Source: a virus (taxonomy: Duplodnaviria; Heunggongvirae; Uroviricota; Caudoviricetes). From it: a stretch of DNA of 10,643 nt. The notes beneath the pieces were generated by a model, which saw nothing but the letters and a program-made list of their open reading frames with translations, searched no databases and was not told where the DNA came from. A program made the translations under genes and the position numbers. Each line of letters starts with the position of its first letter. The first letter of the stretch is position 1. The DNA is taken from IMG/VR virus record IMGVR_UViG_2548876868_000025. The stretch is one strand, 5' to 3'. Shown here in pieces: positions 538-10,643 of the stretch.

Positions 538-1080
538 TTACTCGCCTTTCTTCTGTAGCAACTTTTCCGGTACGTTTCCGGTTGTTTCTTTCAAGTAATC
601 AGCCAGTATCTGTGGGAGGTTGTCGGCAACTCTGGCACTGGCATTACAGGCTTTAACCACTTCCCTTTTAAGCCTATCCAGCATGGCGGGGGTAATCTGT
701 GGGAAGCTCCTTTGCATAGTAAGCGGGAGGCTGTCCATGATTGATGAAATCTGACTCGCCAGCTTTGAAAGCGCGTACAGGCAAAACTCAGTATCAATCA
801 CGTTACCGCGATCGCGCTCGTTTTTAAGTTCCTGCGCCTCCGCCTGTACTGTCAGTAATCTGATCCTGACTCGTAAGAGTTCATCATCATCAATCTCGCC
901 TTTGTCGTTTGTAAGCTGGCTAATTGCATTGTTAACCCTATTGTCTATCACGCTGGCAACATCATAAAACGCCTCACGGCCTTTACGTTCAACGGGTGTC
1001 ACTCCCCACTTGTCGAACGCTGTCGCACTTACACGGCAGCTTTTCGCCATGTTTTTTTTGTTCATCAGGTGCGATTTCAT
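538..1080 (-). CDS. terminase small subunit, lambda Nu1-like
   Basis: 180 aa. The C-terminal half aligns by eye to lambda Nu1 (RLLTVQAEAQELKNERDRGNVIDTEFCLYALSKLASQISSIMDSLPLTMQRSFP versus RLTRAQADAQELKNARDSAEVVETAFCTFVLSRIAGEIASILDGLPLSVQRRFP). N-terminal NKK...W motif is in a similar position; alternative start is ATG at 1065. A cos site lies about 135 bp upstream, as in lambda. Confidence 0.85.
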   Translation of the reverse strand: MKSHLMNKKNMAKSCRVSATAFDKWGVTPVERKGREAFYDVASVIDNRVNNAISQLTNDKGEIDDDELLRVRIRLLTVQAEAQELKNERDRGNVIDTEFCLYALSKLASQISSIMDSLPLTMQRSFPQITPAMLDRLKREVVKACNASARVADNLPQILADYLKETTGNVPEKLLQKKGE

Positions 1081-1285: not shown

Positions 1286-1699
1286 TCAGATGGTTTTCAG
1301 TATGCGATCGATGTCGCGGTCATCGCCCGGCTTTCTGCCATCGTATGCCATGCCTGCTGATACGGCTTGCGGGCTGTGCATGTCCATAAAGTTTTCAAAG
1401 GCTGCGGTAAGCTCTGGTGCAACCTTCTGGCGTTCCTGCTCTATGGTCATGCTAAGGATGCTTTTAGCCGTACCAACATCGATACAAGGCACGTTTGCCA
1501 TTGCACGTAACAGCGGCTGATAGTCGCCAGATTCATCAAGCGCCATAATCGCATCAGAGCGCGGCTTGTCCTGCTCTTCCAGTTTGTTGAGTTGATATAC
1601 GGCCTCGTAGGTTGATAACCCTCTGTCAGCCATTGCCCGCGCTTCGGCTTTAAATTTACTCGCCAGCGGTAGCGTCATGATGCTTTCATTCGTTGCCAT
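1286..1699 (-). CDS. hypothetical protein (137 aa), last gene of the capsid operon
   Basis: ORF tightly packed after the gpD-like gene (12-bp gap) and followed by a terminator. Sits where lambda has FI, but no similarity to a known family could be confirmed. Confidence 0.55.
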   Translation of the reverse strand: MATNESIMTLPLASKFKAEARAMADRGLSTYEAVYQLNKLEEQDKPRSDAIMALDESGDYQPLLRAMANVPCIDVGTAKSILSMTIEQERQKVAPELTAAFENFMDMHSPQAVSAGMAYDGRKPGDDRDIDRILKTI

Positions 1700-1711: not shown

Positions 1712-2056
1712 TTATCGCGCCAGCGGCTGAACGGATACGCCAGAACCCGCAAAGGCGGCGCATTTTTTCGCATCGGTGTCGACGCTCTCAGGCCAGTTAA
1801 CGGCGGCGATATTAAATATCCCCGTCTTATAGCACTGTGCTGATTTCTGCGTCGACGTGTCAACGGGGTACGAGGTCAGATAAACAGCCTTGCCAGATTC
1901 CTGACCATCCCACGGCTTAAACTCGCCATTGTCCGCCAGCATCAGCGGGGTAAATTCCTGAATAACGCCAGCATCAGCGGCAAAATGTACCAGCGTCGTT
2001 GATACCTGCTGACTGCCTGCAAATAACTCAATGTATGGAGTGTTCATAGAATCCAC
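1712..2056 (-). CDS. head decoration protein, lambda gpD-like
   Basis: 114 aa. TPLMLADNGEFKPWDG...CYKTGIFNIAAVNWPESVDTDAKKCAAFAGSGVSV parallels lambda gpD TPLMLDTSSRKLVAWDG...[35 protein letters not shown]. Only 2 bp separate it from the capsid gene. Confidence 0.8.
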   Translation of the reverse strand: MDSMNTPYIELFAGSQQVSTTLVHFAADAGVIQEFTPLMLADNGEFKPWDGQESGKAVYLTSYPVDTSTQKSAQCYKTGIFNIAAVNWPESVDTDAKKCAAFAGSGVSVQPLAR

Positions 2057-2058
2057 CG

Positions 2059-3114
2059 TTAACCAATTTTGACGGTAACAAATTTTCGAATATCTGCCGG
2101 AACAGGCTGCGGTGCGCTGTGTGTCTGCACGTACTCAATCGCCGGATCGCCGTCTTCAATCCAGTTTTTCGGGTAAAACATGTTTTGCGTTGCGCCCGTT
2201 CTTACCGCTTCCTGTTCCATAATCGCACCATAGGCCACCAGCCCTTTATTGTTGGTGTTGCCCAGGACCAGCAAATCAGGCTCAAGGAAATATTTTTCTG
2301 TGCCGTCGCTGTCAGTGTATTTGCCGGAATAGACGATAAGGGCCAGATCACCAAGATAGCCTTTAAAGCTCACCACTTCGCCCAGGTTTTTACATGCCAG
2401 CTCTGCGGCGGATTCTGAACCACGGGAGAGATCGTACAGTTCACGGAATTTTTTAAAGCTGCGTAACATGCGCCATACATCAACGCCCATAATCATGACG
2501 TTGGCGGGGCAACCTGCCTGATCTGCGTATAGTTCAATGTCATATATTGGGTCGTGTATGTCTTTATCCTGCTCAGACCATTTTTTACCGTCGGCCTGCT
2601 CTATGATGTTTTTTTCCGGTATCTTCCAGTCGATTTCATAGCGTTCTATGCCTTCGCCCTCAATGATGTTTTTTCCGGTCGTTACCGCATTCACCGCCAG
2701 CCATTCAACGCGTGCCTTAATGGCGTTTATCTGGCGGCGCATGTTGCCAGTAATCAGGCGCATACGGCGGTAGGTAGGATCGTTAAGCTGTGCCGGATCT
2801 TCTCCAGCCATGCGCATTATTGTTTTTAATGGATCGATTTCGTGTTTTGGCTTCATGTAGCCAGGGCGGATAATGCTGGTTTCGTACCCTTTATCGCGCT
2901 GAACCTGGCTGCCAACCATAGGCGAACAAAACGCCGACATAGTGACTTCTTCAATATCCAGGTTATCTAACATGATGTCCTGCGTGTTGAATGTCGCCAC
3001 GTTCGGGAAAAACAGCGCGGTAAACAGCGGACTAAATTTAAATTCCGCAATATCCTCGCGATTCAGGTACGCGAAAAGCTGGTGTGTGTTAAGTGCTATT
3101 GCTTTGACTGCCAT
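2059..3114 (-). CDS. major capsid protein, lambda gpE family
   Basis: 351 aa. Multiple blocks match lambda gpE: FKFSPLF/FKFDPLF, RPGYMKPKHEIDP/TPGYVKPKHEVNP, EDPAQLNDPTYRRMRLI/EDPQNLADPAYRRRRII, YPKNWIEDGDPA/YPKNWVTTGDPA. Length matches gpE (341 aa). Confidence 0.9.
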   Translation of the reverse strand: MAVKAIALNTHQLFAYLNREDIAEFKFSPLFTALFFPNVATFNTQDIMLDNLDIEEVTMSAFCSPMVGSQVQRDKGYETSIIRPGYMKPKHEIDPLKTIMRMAGEDPAQLNDPTYRRMRLITGNMRRQINAIKARVEWLAVNAVTTGKNIIEGEGIERYEIDWKIPEKNIIEQADGKKWSEQDKDIHDPIYDIELYADQAGCPANVMIMGVDVWRMLRSFKKFRELYDLSRGSESAAELACKNLGEVVSFKGYLGDLALIVYSGKYTDSDGTEKYFLEPDLLVLGNTNNKGLVAYGAIMEQEAVRTGATQNMFYPKNWIEDGDPAIEYVQTHSAPQPVPADIRKFVTVKIG

Positions 3115-3320
3115 TATTCGCCCCCATAATTTTTGTGCATCCCAAGCGCCGCAAGTAAATAAGATCGCACAAGTGAACCTATCGACGGCTCCGGCGTCAT
3201 CAGCGGATCCAGTCCAGCCGCAACGCCAGCTTCATAGTTTTTTTTGTGGCGCTGCTTGAGCACCTCCACGATTTCGGGGCTTATGTACACCGAAACACCG
3301 CCTTTTTTCTCTTCAGCCAT
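3114..3320 (-). CDS. small protein (68 aa) translationally coupled to the capsid gene; possible ribbon-helix-helix fold, or a small scaffold-like factor
   Basis: TAATG stop/start overlap with the capsid gene. SD-like AGAGGAA upstream of the ATG at 3320. VSVYISPEIVEVLKQ resembles an RHH beta-strand plus helix; function unassigned. Confidence 0.5.
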   Translation of the reverse strand: MAEEKKGGVSVYISPEIVEVLKQRHKKNYEAGVAAGLDPLMTPEPSIGSLVRSYLLAALGMHKNYGGE

Positions 3321-3349
3321 AGTAAGAAATTCCTCTTCGACTAAAAAAA

Positions 3350-3410
3350 TTATAACTGGATGTTTATCCAGTCCTGATTATAATCAGAATTGCATTTTAT
3401 GCAATGATAT
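3350..3410 (-). promoter_or_regulatory. Candidate sigma70 promoter of the capsid operon, overlapped by three palindromes
   Basis: On the minus strand: TTGCAT, a 16-bp spacer, then TATAAT. Palindromes TTGCATtttATGCAA (3391-3405), CTGATTATAATCAG (3374-3387, containing the -10) and CTGGATgtttATCCAG (3356-3371, near the expected transcription start). Confidence 0.5.
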
Positions 3411-3529: not shown

Positions 3530-3551
3530 AAAAAAGCCGGATTGCTCCGGC
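3530..3551 (-). terminator. rho-independent terminator after the 74-aa gene
   Basis: Hairpin GCCGGAttgcTCCGGC (3536-3551) followed on the minus strand by a 6-U run (3530-3535). Confidence 0.7.
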
Positions 3552-3571
3552 TATGTGTGCTGTGTGCTGGC

Positions 3572-3796
3572 TCAGTCTCTGATCTCTTTCAGAAATTCTA
3601 TCAATGCATCTATCTGTTCAGGATTTACCGCCAGCATTTCACCGGATAGAGCACATCTCACAAAACCATGCTGATCCTTTTCAATCAGTGCGCCCGTCTC
3701 CAGGAATGCGCGGTAATCATTGATGCTCATCGTCTCCATGTTGTCAGCATGGTATTTATCACGCTGTTTTAATATCTCATCAAATTTCATCGGCAT
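3572..3796 (-). CDS. hypothetical protein (74 aa), stand-alone transcription unit
   Basis: ATG at 3796 with a GAGGAA SD 9 nt upstream. Bracketed by terminators at 3893-3915 (upstream) and 3530-3551 (downstream). No family recognised. Confidence 0.55.
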   Translation of the reverse strand: MPMKFDEILKQRDKYHADNMETMSINDYRAFLETGALIEKDQHGFVRCALSGEMLAVNPEQIDALIEFLKEIRD

Positions 3797-3892: not shown

Positions 3893-3915
3893 AAAAAAAG
3901 CCGGATTTCTCCGGC
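3893..3915 (-). terminator. rho-independent terminator after the 90-aa gene
   Basis: Hairpin GCCGGAtttcTCCGGC (3900-3915) followed on the minus strand by a 7-U run (3893-3899); the stop codon is at 3923-3925. Confidence 0.7.
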
Positions 3916-3922
3916 TGTTTGA

Positions 3923-4195
3923 TTAGCTGTCTTGGTAATTGCGCCATATTTCATCACCAGCACCATCTATACCCATTTCGGCATAAGTGCGATCGACTGC
4001 CTTTTTCAGGTCTCCGAAATTATCCGGCGGCTCCGGTGCCCTCTGTGCCTTCCTTGAACATTCCAGCCGTCGCATCGTGATGTGATGCCGTTCCTTGTCT
4101 GTCTCCACCAGCTGCATGACTTCACCCCATCGCGCCGCCGCCCTCCGGTAAAAGCCTTTCGCCTCCAGTTCCTCCGCTATGCGGTCATGTACCAT
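3923..4195 (-). CDS. hypothetical small protein (90 aa); weak resemblance to ANR-type small regulators
   Basis: ATG at 4195 preceded by GAGGGGG. The longer 130-aa reading frame would overlap ssb, so the short start is preferred. Motif IAEELEAKGFYRRAAARWGEV resembles an ANR-like helical pattern, unverified. Confidence 0.45.
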   Translation of the reverse strand: MVHDRIAEELEAKGFYRRAAARWGEVMQLVETDKERHHITMRRLECSRKAQRAPEPPDNFGDLKKAVDRTYAEMGIDGAGDEIWRNYQDS

Positions 4196-4205
4196 CGTCA
4201 CCCCC

Positions 4206-4616
4206 TCAGAACGAAATATCATCACCGTAAGGGTCATCGCCTCCCGCTGGTGGCTGATTACCCTGTGTGCCTGTGGTTTTGCGTCTGTTCCCGCCTGGAC
4301 GTGCCGCGCGGGCACTGATTACGCTGTCTGCGATAACCTGCCAGCCCTGCCGCGTTTCTCCGTTCTGTCCGGTCCACTGGCTTACCTGCATCGTGCCGGA
4401 TACGCTGGCAACATCGCCTTTTTGATGTTTAGCCAGGAAGTCGGCCTGTTTGCCAAATGCGATGACCGATAACCATAACGTCGCCTGTCCGTCCTGTGCC
4501 TGGCTGCATGGCAAAGATACCGCCATACGCGCCAGCGTCATCGGTGTGCCCTTGCTGGTCTGTTTTACCTGCGGGTCGTCCACCAGCCGCCCGTAAGCGG
4601 CTATCTGTGCCGTCAT
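4206..4616 (-). CDS. ssb: single-stranded DNA-binding protein
   Basis: 136 aa. OB-fold-like core (LWLSVIAFGKQADFLAKHQKGDVASVSGTMQVSQWTGQNGETRQGWQVIADSV), Gly/Pro/Gln-rich linker and acidic C-terminal tail DDPYGDDISF, comparable to the E. coli SSB DDDIPF tail. ATGA overlap with the upstream gene. Confidence 0.85.
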   Translation of the reverse strand: MTAQIAAYGRLVDDPQVKQTSKGTPMTLARMAVSLPCSQAQDGQATLWLSVIAFGKQADFLAKHQKGDVASVSGTMQVSQWTGQNGETRQGWQVIADSVISARAARPGGNRRKTTGTQGNQPPAGGDDPYGDDISF

Positions 4617-4882: not shown

Positions 4883-5068
4883 TTTTACGCCTCACTTTTT
4901 AAAGCGTCTCGCTTCGTCTCACTTGAGATTTTTGTGTTTTGTATGCGCATGTTTCATAAGTGTTTTTTTTACGCCTCACTTTTGAGCATGTATACAGGTG
5001 AGAAAGTGAGCAATCGTGTTAATATTTTGTAAAAACCTCACCATTACTCACTTTTGCTACTCACTTTT
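4878..5068. repeat. Iteron array (candidate replication origin) immediately 3' of the replicase gene
   Basis: CTCACTTTT direct repeats at 4878, 4891, 4975, 5047 and 5060, a variant CTCACTTGA at 4918 and an inverted copy in GTGAGAAAGTGAG (4998-5010). An AT-rich tract lies between them (4921-4970). Confidence 0.6.
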
Positions 5069-6465
5069 TACAGTGGTCCTACATCATCACCATCAATGTA
5101 AATCACGGCGTCTTTTTCCAGTTTGGCTAACCATCGCCGCATATTTTTCACGTCATACCCAAGCCGTTTCATGTCATCACGTAACAGCGGGATCGTGCAC
5201 TTGTCGCCGTTCTGTGTACGTGAACGGATGCACCCCCATAGCGCGGTATGGTTTTCCGTCTTGTTGCCTGCCTCCTCGATGCGCTCCAGTTCAACGGGAG
5301 GGCGCGGCTTATCCACCACCACCAGCGACGTGATTAACTCCCCGTCAGCGTCGGTAAAAAGCTCCACCACGCGTAAGTCATATGCGGCTTCTTTGAGTTC
5401 CTCCGCGTCCTTCATTTTGGTGCATGAGATAACCAGCGCTTCGCTGCCTGCGTCCTCCCTGCGTATCCGGTATTCAGCGTCCAGTGATGCACGAAATGCA
5501 CTGGAACCACGCGCCCCCTTTGTTTCATCCTTGCCGGAATGGTGAACCACCAGCACCGTGGCCCCTGTGCGCCGTTTCAGTTCGTCACAACCACGGATAA
5601 ACGCCCCCATATCACGGGAATCATTTTCATCATTACCACCAAAGCAACGCGCCAGCGTATCCAGAATAATCATGCGTACAGGTTTACCCGTTTCCCGCTC
5701 CACCTGACGGGCAGCGATAACCATTTCATCAACATCAAACGGGGCAGCCGGAAAGATGGGACGGTTTACCAGGTACAGATTTTTCACCTGCTCACCGTGC
5801 ACAACTTCCCACGCTCTCACGCGACGCGGTACACCAATACCGCCTTCACCAACCACATAGAGGACCGCACCATGTGCAACCCTGCGGCCTCCCCAGTGGC
5901 GACCCGTTGAAACGTGACACGCCCACGAACCAGCAAGGAACGACTTATATGAACCGCTCGCCCCGTATATGCTGCATAGCGACGATGCCGGAATAATCCC
6001 CTTTACCACGTAATCTAATTGCGTGTCGTATCCGGCAGATCCAACGCTCATCGGTAGCGTGGTTTTTCGCTGGTGGCTCAGGCTTTCCCCGCGTTCCCAT
6101 GTCTCCCTAAGCCGTGGAAGCTGGTCGCTCCATTCCTCCAGCAATTCGAAATTTTCAGAAAACAGGCGCGCTTCCTGGACTCCTGCGATTGCCAGTTTCG
6201 TGGCGATGGTTAACAACTGCACTTCGTCAATATTTCCGGCACGTATCACTTTCGCCCTGAACCGACCTTTATCAACAATCTGCAAGTTATCCAGTTCGCT
6301 TAACTGATAACGCCCCAGGTAAACGGGAGGGACTGGATCGCCTGCTTTTTTGGCCTGTGCAATGATGTAGTGCTCTGCAAATGAGTGAGCATTATCACCC
6401 GCAAAAATAACCGCTTCGGTGTGTTTATCTTTCGGTAACAGTTTTACATTCGGTGCCAGTTTCAT
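5068..6465 (-). CDS. replication protein with a RecA-like/AAA ATPase core (primase-helicase-type replicase of P4/PICI-like elements)
   Basis: 465 aa. Walker A GASGSYKS and Walker B-like MIILDT followed by an acidic stretch; unassigned N-terminal domain of about 150 aa; C-terminal DNA-binding-like tail. ATGA overlap with the upstream gene. Confidence 0.85.
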   Translation of the reverse strand: MKLAPNVKLLPKDKHTEAVIFAGDNAHSFAEHYIIAQAKKAGDPVPPVYLGRYQLSELDNLQIVDKGRFRAKVIRAGNIDEVQLLTIATKLAIAGVQEARLFSENFELLEEWSDQLPRLRETWERGESLSHQRKTTLPMSVGSAGYDTQLDYVVKGIIPASSLCSIYGASGSYKSFLAGSWACHVSTGRHWGGRRVAHGAVLYVVGEGGIGVPRRVRAWEVVHGEQVKNLYLVNRPIFPAAPFDVDEMVIAARQVERETGKPVRMIILDTLARCFGGNDENDSRDMGAFIRGCDELKRRTGATVLVVHHSGKDETKGARGSSAFRASLDAEYRIRREDAGSEALVISCTKMKDAEELKEAAYDLRVVELFTDADGELITSLVVVDKPRPPVELERIEEAGNKTENHTALWGCIRSRTQNGDKCTIPLLRDDMKRLGYDVKNMRRWLAKLEKDAVIYIDGDDVGPL

Positions 6466-8012: not shown

Positions 8013-8141
8013 AACGGCTCCTAGTTTACGTTGTTGGTTAGAAGCCCCGTTACTGCTCCTACAGTGCGGGGCTTTGCTTTTTGTGTTGATTGTGTGTAAT
8101 GTGTCATTACACATAAATACATTACATGAGGTGTAATTAAC
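8013..8141. promoter_or_regulatory. Divergent control region between the Icd-like operon and the RHH gene, with operator-like inverted repeats and a hairpin
   Basis: Inverted repeats GTGTAATG-tgt-CATTACAC (8094-8112) and ATTACA-tgagg-TGTAAT (8121-8138, overlapping the RHH SD). GC hairpin GCCCCG...CGGGGC (8044-8072) followed by a T-rich tract on the plus strand. Confidence 0.5.
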
Positions 8142-8321
8142 GTGTCAACACACAAAAACGAAAGGCGTGGTAATCCTCCGTTCCAGTTCCGTTTAGATCC
8201 TGACTTACGGGAAAAGATGGAAAAGGCACAACAACAGGACGGCGATGATTCTCTTGCTGCCTGGATAAAGCGAATAATCCGCAAAGAATTACAGCAACGC
8301 GGCATAGAACCCAAAGGATAA
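8142..8321 (+). CDS. Arc/ribbon-helix-helix family DNA-binding protein (candidate repressor)
   Basis: 59 aa, GTG start with GAGG 10 nt upstream. PPFQFRLDPDLREKMEKAQQQDGDDSLAAWIKRIIRKEL fits the RHH beta-strand/helix/helix pattern. Not in the ORF track (below its length cutoff). It is the only convincing plus-strand gene. Confidence 0.7.
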   Translation: MSTHKNERRGNPPFQFRLDPDLREKMEKAQQQDGDDSLAAWIKRIIRKELQQRGIEPKG

Positions 8322-8644
8322 AAACTATCAGCGCCGTGGTGTGAGGAACTCCGGCGCATTGCTTTACAGGCGCACACAATGACCAACGAAGAATCAACCA
8401 AAAAAACATCACCTGCACGAAAAAGACGACGCAGAAAGAAAGAGCATGAATCAGAACGATTCGCGCCGTGTTCTTTTGCCCTTGAGAAGTACCTTAAAGA
8501 ATACTCATCAAAGGAGAGAGCTTCGCAGTTATGGAAACGCACTGAAACAGACTGATAGCATTGCCCACCAGCCTGATAGCGGCTATCATGCCCTGGCTTA
8601 TGTTTGTTGACACATAATGCGCAGCGGGTTAATTGTTCAGAAAG

Positions 8645-8697: not shown

Positions 8698-8904
8698 TTA
8701 AGCAGCCGTTACGCGCGCTTCCTGTTCGCGTTCTTTCATCCAGGCGATTACGTCATCCTCATACCATCCCCGACGGCGTAAACCAACACGAAAACCCTGC
8801 GGGAATTCTCCGGCGTTGATCATGCTTTGCAGCGTGCTGTCTGCCTTGATGTGGATAAGTTTTTTTACTTCCTGGCGAAAGATGACTTTTTTGATTGCTT
8901 CCAT
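8698..8904 (-). CDS. alpA: AlpA-family transcriptional regulator / excisionase-like protein
   Basis: 68 aa. ...STLQSMINAGEFPQGFRVGLRRRGWYEDDVIAWMKERE fits the AlpA/Vis pattern (HTH, G-FP, conserved W, C-terminal W). AAGG SD upstream. Located just downstream of int, as in P4-like and PICI elements. Confidence 0.85.
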   Translation of the reverse strand: MEAIKKVIFRQEVKKLIHIKADSTLQSMINAGEFPQGFRVGLRRRGWYEDDVIAWMKEREQEARVTAA

Positions 8905-8981: not shown

Positions 8982-9008
8982 ACCGTTTTTAAACGGTTAT
9001 AACCGTTT
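8982..9008. promoter_or_regulatory. Palindromic operator-like site upstream of alpA
   Basis: Perfect 16-bp palindrome AACGGTTATAACCGTT (8992-9007) overlapping an ACCGTTT-tt-AAACGGT inverted repeat (8982-8997); three ACCGTT-type half-sites about 90 bp upstream of the alpA start. Confidence 0.4.
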
Positions 9009-9072: not shown

Positions 9073-9303
9073 TTAACGCCACTTTCTTGGCCTGCCTCCG
9101 GTTTTCATGGATGCCGGACGTACTACCCTATCAATACTTACCGCCAGATTTCTGGAAGCCCCGCGGGATACCAGAAAATCTACTACCTGTTTTTTTGATG
9201 GGGCTGTCGTTCTGTCCTCCGGATCGTAGGTTGACCAAAATTCATGCTGAACCATCAGGGCCAGTTGCAGCCCGTCGCAATTGCATCTGATATTTTTTTG
9301 CAT
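9073..9303 (-). CDS. hypothetical protein (76 aa), doubtful
   Basis: ORF between int and alpA with a terminator 12 nt after its stop, but no convincing SD and an unconvincing composition. Could be non-coding 3' region of int. Confidence 0.25.
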   Translation of the reverse strand: MQKNIRCNCDGLQLALMVQHEFWSTYDPEDRTTAPSKKQVVDFLVSRGASRNLAVSIDRVVRPASMKTGGRPRKWR

Positions 9304-9401
9304 CTTAACGGTTTCATGTTTCGCGGCCTTGTCGTTAAATTTGGTGCAATTATACGACGGTTTTGCATGGTTTTCGTAGTTTTTACTGGTTTTCTGTACA
9401 G

Positions 9402-10643
9402 CTACACGGCCCGAATACCCCTTTTACCACTGGCAAGGGTTACGCCCGTTGCCGCCGCCTCGACAAATTCGCCCCACCAGCGCATAAGCACAATGCGTTT
9501 TTCTATGTAGTTGCTCCGGTTGTATGCCCGTCTCACTTCGTTGGTGTCCACGTGGGCTAGTGCGGCCTCGATTACGTCCGGCTCAAATCCTTCTTCGTTC
9601 GCTGCGGTGCTGAATATGGCGCGCATACCGTGAGAAACCAGAATCCCGCCAAACCCCATCCGCCGCAATGCTGCGTTTGCGGTCTGGCTGTTCATAGGCT
9701 GCCGTGGGTCTTTCAGGCTCGGGAAAACATAATCGCGGTGGTGGCTGATTGGTTTCATGGCCTCCAGTACCGCCATGGCCTGACTACAAAGCGGGATAAC
9801 GTGATCACGCCGCATCTTCATGCGTCCGGCGGGTATCGTCCATTGTTGCGCGTCCAGGTCGATTTCTTCCCAGCGTGCTGACGATGCTTCAACCGGACGG
9901 GTTACAGTCAGTAACTGCCATTCAATCAGTAATCTGGTCTGCCGTTCTGTTGCCGATACTGATAAAGCCTGCATAAGCTCCGGCAACTGTTCGGGGCGGA
10001 TTGTTGGCATATGTTTTTTTACAGGGGAGGGGAACGCCTTACGCACATTCATAGCCGGATTGGTATCAATCAGCCCACTGTTGGCGGCGTAATCCATTAC
10101 CTCATTAATTCGCTGCAAAACCCGCTTTAGTGTTTCCAGGTTGCCACGTTCCTTGATGGGGGTAAGCACCTCAACGAACCTGCGAGCGGTCAGGGTGTCT
10201 ATTGGCGTGTTGCCGATGAACGGGAATACATATTTTTCCAGCGAACGCCAGATGTCTTTAATCGTGTTGGGGGCCAGATTCTGGCTGATTTTCACCTGGT
10301 ACCATGCCGCCGCCACATTTTCGAACGTGTTCCCTTGTCTTCGGGCCTCTGTCTCTCTTTTTTGCCTCTCGTGGTCCTGCGGGTCAGTTCCGGCACTGAT
10401 TAACGTCCTGTACTCGCTACGGCGTTTTCTGGCATCAGCCAGGGAAACATCTTCAAGCGATCCAAAACTCAGCAATATTCTTTTTTTGTCCGATGGTCGG
10501 TAGTAGGAAAATCTCCAGAGTTTTGATCCAGACGGTTTGACCAAGAGAAAAAGCCCTCCGCCGTCCTGCAGGGTGTACTCCTTTTGCGCTGGTCTGGCTG
10601 CTTTGATCTGCACTGTGGTTAATGGGTGTGTTTTTCTCGCCAT
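9402..10643 (-). CDS. int: tyrosine site-specific integrase, P4 family
   Basis: 413 aa. N-terminal arm-type DNA-binding region (LTTVQIKAARPAQKEYTLQDGGGLFLLVKPSGSKLWRFSYY) and C-terminal catalytic region with HGMRAIFST (H-x-x-R) and a tyrosine in RRAYNRSNY. The start codon is the last three bases of the window. Confidence 0.95.
   Translation of the reverse strand: MARKTHPLTTVQIKAARPAQKEYTLQDGGGLFLLVKPSGSKLWRFSYYRPSDKKRILLSFGSLEDVSLADARKRRSEYRTLISAGTDPQDHERQKRETEARRQGNTFENVAAAWYQVKISQNLAPNTIKDIWRSLEKYVFPFIGNTPIDTLTARRFVEVLTPIKERGNLETLKRVLQRINEVMDYAANSGLIDTNPAMNVRKAFPSPVKKHMPTIRPEQLPELMQALSVSATERQTRLLIEWQLLTVTRPVEASSARWEEIDLDAQQWTIPAGRMKMRRDHVIPLCSQAMAVLEAMKPISHHRDYVFPSLKDPRQPMNSQTANAALRRMGFGGILVSHGMRAIFSTAANEEGFEPDVIEAALAHVDTNEVRRAYNRSNYIEKRIVLMRWWGEFVEAAATGVTLASGKRGIRAV

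Follow-up and report, generated by a model that had tools for sequence, protein, structure and literature searches.

Phage-inducible chromosomal islands (PICIs) of Gram-negative bacteria are thought to be run by AlpA, itself turned on by the helper phage, and the manner and timing of expression of their capsid and packaging genes are undescribed. SOS promoters under dual control are known from mobile elements, namely PrstA of the CTX phage (LexA and RstR) and that of GIL01 (LexA and gp7). In the SaPIs of Staphylococcus aureus, operon I, the packaging and capsid-morphogenesis module, is reportedly under LexA control, a result said to go back to Ubeda et al. in 2007. AlpA is reported to act on its own promoter and on island genes as an activator needed for induction, and alpA to require the helper, not SOS, for its expression; in EcCICFT073, the prototype PICI of Gram-negative bacteria, the homologues of capsid and decoration genes are c1499 and c1500 (PMC6092414). 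The published studies of EcCICFT073 (Fillol-Salom et al. 2018, 2019) deal with Rpp and with control by AlpA and are silent on a LexA box at the capsid promoter. LexA appears there in the reference lists only, and a cf-PICI preprint makes no mention of it. No account of a LexA box at the promoter treated here was found in the open-access main texts searched, and the sequence of the box is printed nowhere in them.

The stretch of DNA analysed in this study (the window, 10,643 bases) is an EcCICFT073-type PICI of Escherichia coli. It matches part of the E. coli 7_33_46A chromosome at 100% identity, and a tRNA-Pro gene lies about 220 bp from the end of that part. Within about 10–11 kb, annotation and family searches revealed an integrase near a tRNA, alpA, a replication module and then lambda-like genes for capsid, decoration and a Nu1-like (Rpp-type) product, as in EcCICFT073-type islands. 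The main genes are all on the minus strand:

9402-10643, minus strand: integrase gene (int), from annotation and family searches.
8698-8904, minus strand: AlpA-like HTH gene with a product of 68 aa, from annotation and family searches.
Leftward, minus strand: Icd-like genes, from annotation and family searches.
5068-6465, minus strand: RepA-family helicase gene, from annotation and family searches.
4206-4616, minus strand: SSB gene, from annotation and family searches.
3923-4195, minus strand: PerC-family gene, from annotation and family searches.
3572-3796, minus strand: gene for a 74-aa product, from annotation.
3114-3320, minus strand: first gene of the capsid operon, encoding a 68-aa protein (PHROG 3255, no Pfam family).
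2059-3114, minus strand: lambda E-like major capsid gene (Pfam Phage_cap_E; the operon matches PHROGs 29, 49, 1999 and 53).
1712-2047, minus strand: lambda D-like decoration gene (Pfam HDPD).
1286-1699, minus strand: Nu3-like gene, encoding a 137-aa protein (PHROG 53).
1282-1263, minus strand: terminator closing the capsid operon, 3' of the Nu3-like gene, from the terminator scan.
538-1080, minus strand: Nu1-like small-terminase gene, from annotation and family searches.

EcCICFT073, located in the CFT073 genome, has the same gene order as the island in the window. The two differ in their integrase and replication modules, with a RepA helicase in the window and a primase in EcCICFT073. Of 5426 complete E. 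coli genomes, about 600 have the sequence, many O157:H7 strains among them.

Several further features of the island were observed. The 137-aa protein (1286-1699) aligns only to the C-terminal end of the head-maturation protease of PHROG 53, comparable to lambda Nu3 nested in gene C, and the island thus seems, from this alignment, to carry a scaffold-like gene besides its E and D homologues. Three near-identical terminator hairpins, AGCCGGAG(A/C)AATCCGGCT, lie at 1263-1282, 3535-3552 and 3899-3916, 3' of the Nu3-like, 74-aa and PerC genes respectively, and this repeated cassette splits the island into separate transcription units. The PerC-family regulator gene (3923-4195), just upstream of the capsid promoter region, is related to LEE pathogenicity island activators; some related islands have it and others do not. 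At 8093-8113, between the leftward Icd-like genes and the rightward ORFs 8142-8321 and 8379-8555, lies the 21-bp palindrome TGTGTAATGTGTCATTACACA (9-bp arms), which looks like the operator of a divergent control region of the island.

The region in front of the 68-aa gene is, as read from its sequence, the sigma-70 promoter of the capsid operon and is probably kept shut by host LexA. Its features are as follows:

3552-3535 and 3520-3482, minus strand: two intrinsic terminators, from the terminator scan and inverted repeats.
3434-3420, minus strand: upstream imperfect copy of a 15-bp motif, TTTCATAATTTGCAA, a direct repeat 30 bp from the first copy, at about -64 to -50.
3405-3389, minus strand: palindrome ATTGCATAAAATGCAAT with 7-bp arms, comprising the -35 hexamer and the conserved spacer box AAAATGCAA.
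3404-3399, minus strand: -35 hexamer TTGCAT, read from the sequence, with 3/6 matches to TTGACA.
3387-3374, minus strand: 14-bp palindrome CTGATTATAATCAG, perfect with 7-bp arms, a candidate operator at about -17 to -4.
3382-3377, minus strand: -10 hexamer TATAAT, read from the sequence, with a 16-nt spacer to the -35.
3373-3354, minus strand: predicted LexA box GACTGGATAAACATCCAGTT, from its matrix score, at about -3 to +17 of the promoter.
3372-3355, minus strand: start-site palindrome ACTGGATAAACATCCAGT, perfect with 7-bp arms, inside the predicted LexA box.
About 3370 (range 3368-3372), minus strand: predicted transcription start, 7 nt past the -10, placed from the hexamer positions.

Conservation was assessed on a set of relatives assembled from E. 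coli genomes, viral contigs and contigs encoding homologues of the 68-aa capsid-operon protein (54–74% identity, Salmonella included). The set comprises 107 loci with 58 distinct promoter sequences, which form a gapless alignment between the upstream motif and the LexA box. One-genome-per-species scans with the 68-aa and capsid proteins gave no confirmed locus. Between the window island and the Salmonella relatives, an 87-bp block (3440-3354) is gapless with 79% identity, against 54% just upstream, 56% in both the 5' UTR and the 68-aa gene, and 69% for the capsid gene. With the block conserved above its surroundings, more than the LexA box is under constraint.

Both terminators upstream insulate the capsid promoter from upstream transcription, so the capsid operon has its own promoter. 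With two strong terminators just upstream and the 68-aa, E-like, D-like and Nu3-like genes downstream, the designation of this region in the earlier note as the capsid-operon promoter is borne out. The description of that promoter as near-consensus sigma70 holds for the -10 hexamer, which is perfect and invariant in 58/58 distinct relatives, and fails for the -35. Of the latter, TTGC is invariant and positions 5 and 6 vary among the 58 relatives (TTGCAC in 32, TTGCAT in 11, TTGCGC in seven, and others). A consensus promoter scan of the window did not list the TTGCAT-16-TATAAT promoter, because its -35 matches TTGACA at three of six positions only. A second TATAAT at 3354-3349 is lineage-specific (4/58 distinct relatives). 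A tandem promoter using an upstream TTGCAA or a downstream TATGAT was rejected, the partner hexamers being poor or unconserved. In the 5' UTR (3321-3343) a hairpin is predicted in which the Shine-Dalgarno sequence AAGAGG pairs with a downstream TTTCTT; its sequence AAGAGGAATTTCT is kept in the E. coli relatives.

Enumeration of palindromes on the minus strand returned three perfect ones with 7-bp arms, separated from one another by single bases. Of 300 dinucleotide-shuffled versions of the window, three contained a trio of palindromes with arms of 6 bp or more and starts no further than 50 bp apart; of 3000 local shuffles of the 161-bp AT-rich intergenic region, 16 contained at least three palindromes. 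The earlier observation that three palindromes overlap a minus-strand promoter was thus reproduced, at a density above chance. The first of them had been placed 5' of the -35; its left arm is the -35 hexamer itself, and the rest runs 3' into the spacer.

The start-site palindrome, for which the earlier note had not recognized any known regulator, is a canonical E. coli LexA box by sequence. The segment GA CTGGATAAACATCCAG TT at 3373-3354 fits the imperfect 16–20-bp dyad CTGT-N8-ACAG of LexA operators, with CTG and CAG 10 bp apart, and the G/C at its fourth position is the same as in the ruvA and cho boxes. Boxes of this CTGG/CCAG type (ruvA, cho) are among the weaker LexA sites. The predicted box begins 3 nt past the invariant TATAAT and overlaps the core promoter and the predicted start site; an extent of about -3 to +17 is a usual placement for a LexA operator. 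The ruvA SOS box CGCTGGATATCTATCCAGCA has the same arms, CTGGAT/ATCCAG (PMC3009722). On a symmetrised matrix built from only 18 E. coli LexA boxes (Table 4 of PMC3009722), GACTGGATAAACATCCAGTT scored 20.3 bits, by far the top match in the window. Leave-one-out scores of the 18 real boxes ranged over 6.5–27.5 bits (recA 20.4, sulA 20.0, ruvA 18.4). From the exact score distribution, 0.0009 (uniform base composition) to 0.005 (33% G+C) matches of this score are expected per window. An approximate heterology index derived from the same 18 sites is 6.3 for the predicted box, compared to 0.3–9.3 for the real ones. In 153 kb of control sequence (lambda, CFT073 chromosome, flanking chromosome) nothing outside PICIs exceeded 16 bits, the best match reaching 15.0.

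That best match outside the islands is TACTGGATCTATCAACAGGA at lambda 38660-38679 (15.0 bits), between cII and O. A 12.5-bit site resembling it lies at the corresponding place in a CFT073 lambdoid prophage (18866). These LexA-like sites are probably due to chance.

Among the 58 distinct relatives the CTG and CAG of the CTG-N10-CAG dyad never change, an invariance which, like that of the core of the -10 palindrome, is partly ascertainment, as most relatives were retrieved with patterns fixing parts of the motifs, one of which fixed CTGK, MCAG and the -10 palindrome core. A set anchored on the upstream motif, which is unbiased for the -10 core and for CTG/CAG, gave the same picture. The four central bases vary (GAAC, AAAC, GAAA, GTTC, GTAC). 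In four of the 58 variants position 3359 is changed from C to A, turning ATCCAG into ATACAG; the perfect dyad and the hairpin pairing are lost, the match to the LexA consensus is improved and the score rises to 21.6 bits. The box is kept in the Salmonella relatives (20.1 bits) and in EcCICFT073 (20.2 bits). With CTG and CAG invariant, the centre variable, and a substitution that breaks the dyad and raises the score, this pattern fits LexA recognition and does not fit a structural RNA element. The start-site palindrome is therefore likely to be a LexA operator and the capsid promoter to be SOS-repressed. Given the canonical box, the host SOS repressor is the one regulator that can be named here.

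A second LexA-like box was found at the other end of the island:

9384-9403, minus strand: AGCTGTACAGAAAACCAGTA, 16.9 bits, directly 3' of the int stop codon.

At this score 0.009–0.04 matches are expected per window. The box sits upstream of a 76-aa ORF (9073-9303). Relatives with unrelated flanks, EcCICFT073 among them, also carry LexA-like boxes between int and alpA; in EcCICFT073 the site scores 18.1 bits and has CAC instead of CAG in one arm. The box at 9384-9403 may be non-functional. As alpA is helper-dependent and SOS-independent, SOS alone does not run the island.

The two remaining palindromes differ in how they are conserved. Around the -10, perfect symmetry of the 12-bp core TGATTATAATCA is kept in 56 of the 58 relatives, a figure subject to the same partial ascertainment, with one-sided changes in the two exceptions, and the core is identical in Salmonella even though neighbouring bases differ. 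The outermost pair of the 14-bp palindrome is complementary in 41/58 (A-T 28, C-G 13) against about 29 expected from column composition, a comparison uncorrected for the relatedness of the sequences. The palindrome is plausible, on this conservation, as an operator over the -10. The only strong association of the state of the outer pair with neighbouring gene variants concerned the adjacent 74-aa gene, which is lineage linkage and uninformative about the binder. The palindrome is no Fur box: a scan of the window gave seven matches of 13/19 to GATAATGATAATCATTATC and nothing above, and the palindrome, for which at least 13/19 was asked, is not among the seven.

For the palindrome on the -35, a perfect 6+3+6 dyad is present in only 11 of the 58 relatives. 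Positions 3400 and 3399 vary in this set with no compensating change at 3394 and 3395, and the conserved part consists of TTGC and AAAATGCAA. The asymmetric 15-bp motif TTKCNNAAWWTGMAA has exactly two copies, 30 bp apart, per locus across the 908 kb of 105 related loci, with none elsewhere. Its first copy is at -34 to -20; the upstream copy TTTCATAATTTGCAA, which the earlier reading had missed, is nearly invariant among the relatives. Sites for CytR, ArgR, KdgR, IHF and lambda CII and the MarA/SoxS box, compared by eye through their consensuses, fitted the 15-mer and the -10 palindrome poorly. The 14-bp palindrome and the two copies of the 15-bp motif (-34 to -20 and -64 to -50) probably provide, judging by their conservation, additional control by further proteins.

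In the proposed mechanism, the perfect -10 with a TTG-type -35 would form an active, constitutive promoter in the absence of repressors. In the undamaged cell a LexA dimer on the start-site box would block RNA polymerase. DNA damage would activate RecA and lead to self-cleavage of LexA, the same signal inducing lambdoid helper prophages. With LexA gone, the promoter would fire and the 68-aa, E-like, D-like and Nu3-like proteins would be made. We infer from the DNA sequence that LexA binds the box, where transcription starts, that SOS induces the promoter and that the other two elements may be occupied. The suggestion in the earlier note of tight repression agrees with a promoter that looks built for repression, and more than one regulator, as also suggested there, is plausible in view of an 87-bp block better conserved than the adjacent coding sequence.

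Other explanations were weighed against LexA control. It is hardly credible that the symmetry is a chance product of an AT-rich promoter with no operator function. TATA is self-complementary, so that a -10 easily extends into a palindrome, and only 11/58 relatives have the first palindrome in perfect form, but the shuffle tests, the statistics of the LexA score and a block conserved at 79% against 54–56% in the flanks all argue otherwise. An RNA attenuator, in which the start-site stem-loop and its U-run would be read through by a Q- or AlpA-like antiterminator loaded at the spacer box, is very unlikely. The terminator scan does flag 3373-3354 with its T-run, the hairpin folds (the whole 5' UTR at -10.5 kcal/mol, z-score -2.1), and a TATAAT/TATGAT is present at +17 to +22; Q and the AlpA of Pseudomonas aeruginosa use a site between -35 and -10 together with a -10-like pause element (PMC9371919). 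Against it, the C-to-A variants break the stem yet improve the LexA match, no compensatory changes were seen, and the stem has three G-C pairs only. The -10-like element is not kept either, being TGTGAT in 7/58 distinct relatives and AGATGA in the Salmonella relatives. The locus lacks the marks of antitermination of the Q or P. aeruginosa AlpA type: the hexamer at 3354-3349 is unconserved, and the sole terminator-like feature is the weak hairpin of the LexA box. The Q-binding region of lambda, rejected as a counterpart of the 15-mer, matches it at 10 of 15 positions (five mismatches) and is placed differently relative to the -35 and -10. The AlpA of the island is 68 aa long, whereas that of P. 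aeruginosa is much longer, with contact residues up to H142 (PMC9371919).

The reading of the earlier note, in which the three palindromes are operators for island or helper regulators and activation by AlpA or a helper protein is needed, is improbable. In its favour, AlpA turns on island genes and induction depends on it (PMC6092414), conservation of the block extends past the LexA box, and the outer pair of the -10 palindrome tends to stay complementary. Yet a promoter combining a perfect -10 and a TTG -35 can do without an activator, the perfect -10 argues for repression over activation, and the palindrome on the -35 is not conserved as a dyad. The search for the same palindromes elsewhere that had been proposed with this reading returned no copies: the three promoter motifs have no other copy within the element and none in lambda within three mismatches, and the promoter and the 68-aa capsid-operon protein are absent from 50,697 phage records. 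A word comparison found no meaningful words common to the capsid promoter and the region upstream of alpA, which has AACGGT-type palindromes of its own, and the idea that the two share an AlpA site was rejected. PerC was rejected as the regulator, as four of six variant loci keep the whole block although they lack PerC, and no DNA-binding family was found for the other small island ORFs. Autoregulation on top of LexA, with the 68-aa product of the operon binding the -10 palindrome or the repeated 15-bp motif, is rather doubtful. Antitoxin-type repressors are said to act in this way at some SOS promoters, such as dinJ-yafQ. The protein is encoded by the first gene of the operon, the motifs are confined to the capsid promoter, and among 11 homologues three gave faint matches to BrnA_antitoxin (best E 0.017) and three to RHH_1 (best E 0.15). 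The monomer model consists of an extended N-terminal segment followed by two helices (mean pLDDT 70). Against this, the protein of the window has no Pfam match, its model no fold match, and profile comparison with CopG and ParD found nothing. Its earlier label as an RHH gene is unproven, the BrnA and RHH_1 matches being faint and sub-threshold, and the protein is a candidate autoregulator by gene position, the only real argument. It is tentatively conceivable that the promoter is a multi-input gate, at which LexA acts together with a second regulator on the -10 palindrome, the 15-bp motif or both; that regulator could be island-encoded, helper-encoded or the 68-aa product of the operon.

Two overlapping palindromes, AAACGGTTATAACCGTTT (perfect, 18 bp) and ACCGTTTTTAAACGGT, lie at 8982-9008, about 90 bp from alpA on its upstream side. 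They are a candidate site of AlpA autoregulation and are unrelated to the motifs of the capsid promoter.

LexA control of the capsid promoter, as predicted here, can be compared with the described systems. The predicted box shares with the ruvAB and cho SOS boxes of E. coli the 20-bp CTG-N10-CAG dyad, a score in the validated range and the overlap with the core promoter and start, but lies on a mobile element before capsid genes, whereas theirs precede repair genes. As in operon I of the SaPIs, a satellite morphogenesis module would be placed under the host SOS repressor, apart from the master regulator. The LexA motif here is, however, Gram-negative, the genes are unrelated (homologues of lambda E, D and Nu3), a terminator separates the Nu1-like gene from them, and the role of master regulator falls to the activator AlpA, where the SaPIs have the repressor Stl. 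The two systems resemble each other in function, by convergence, and are not homologous. EcCICFT073 carries a near-identical promoter block with the 20.2-bit box upstream of the gene preceding c1499. With CTX PrstA and GIL01 the locus has in common a LexA box beside further conserved operator-like sequences at one promoter; the second regulator has a name there (RstR, gp7), whereas here there are only candidate sites.

A LexA box on the capsid promoter, from E. coli to Salmonella and in EcCICFT073, would tie the capsid genes of these islands directly to the host SOS response. A LexA-controlled capsid operon would be an independent, convergent parallel to operon I of the SaPIs. SOS control gives a testable prediction on the timing of expression, and may throw light on what the homologues of capsid and decoration genes, c1499 and c1500, do. 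If the multi-input gate were true, the capsid homologues would be made only when SOS and a particular state of the helper coincide, a regulatory logic undescribed for Gram-negative PICIs.
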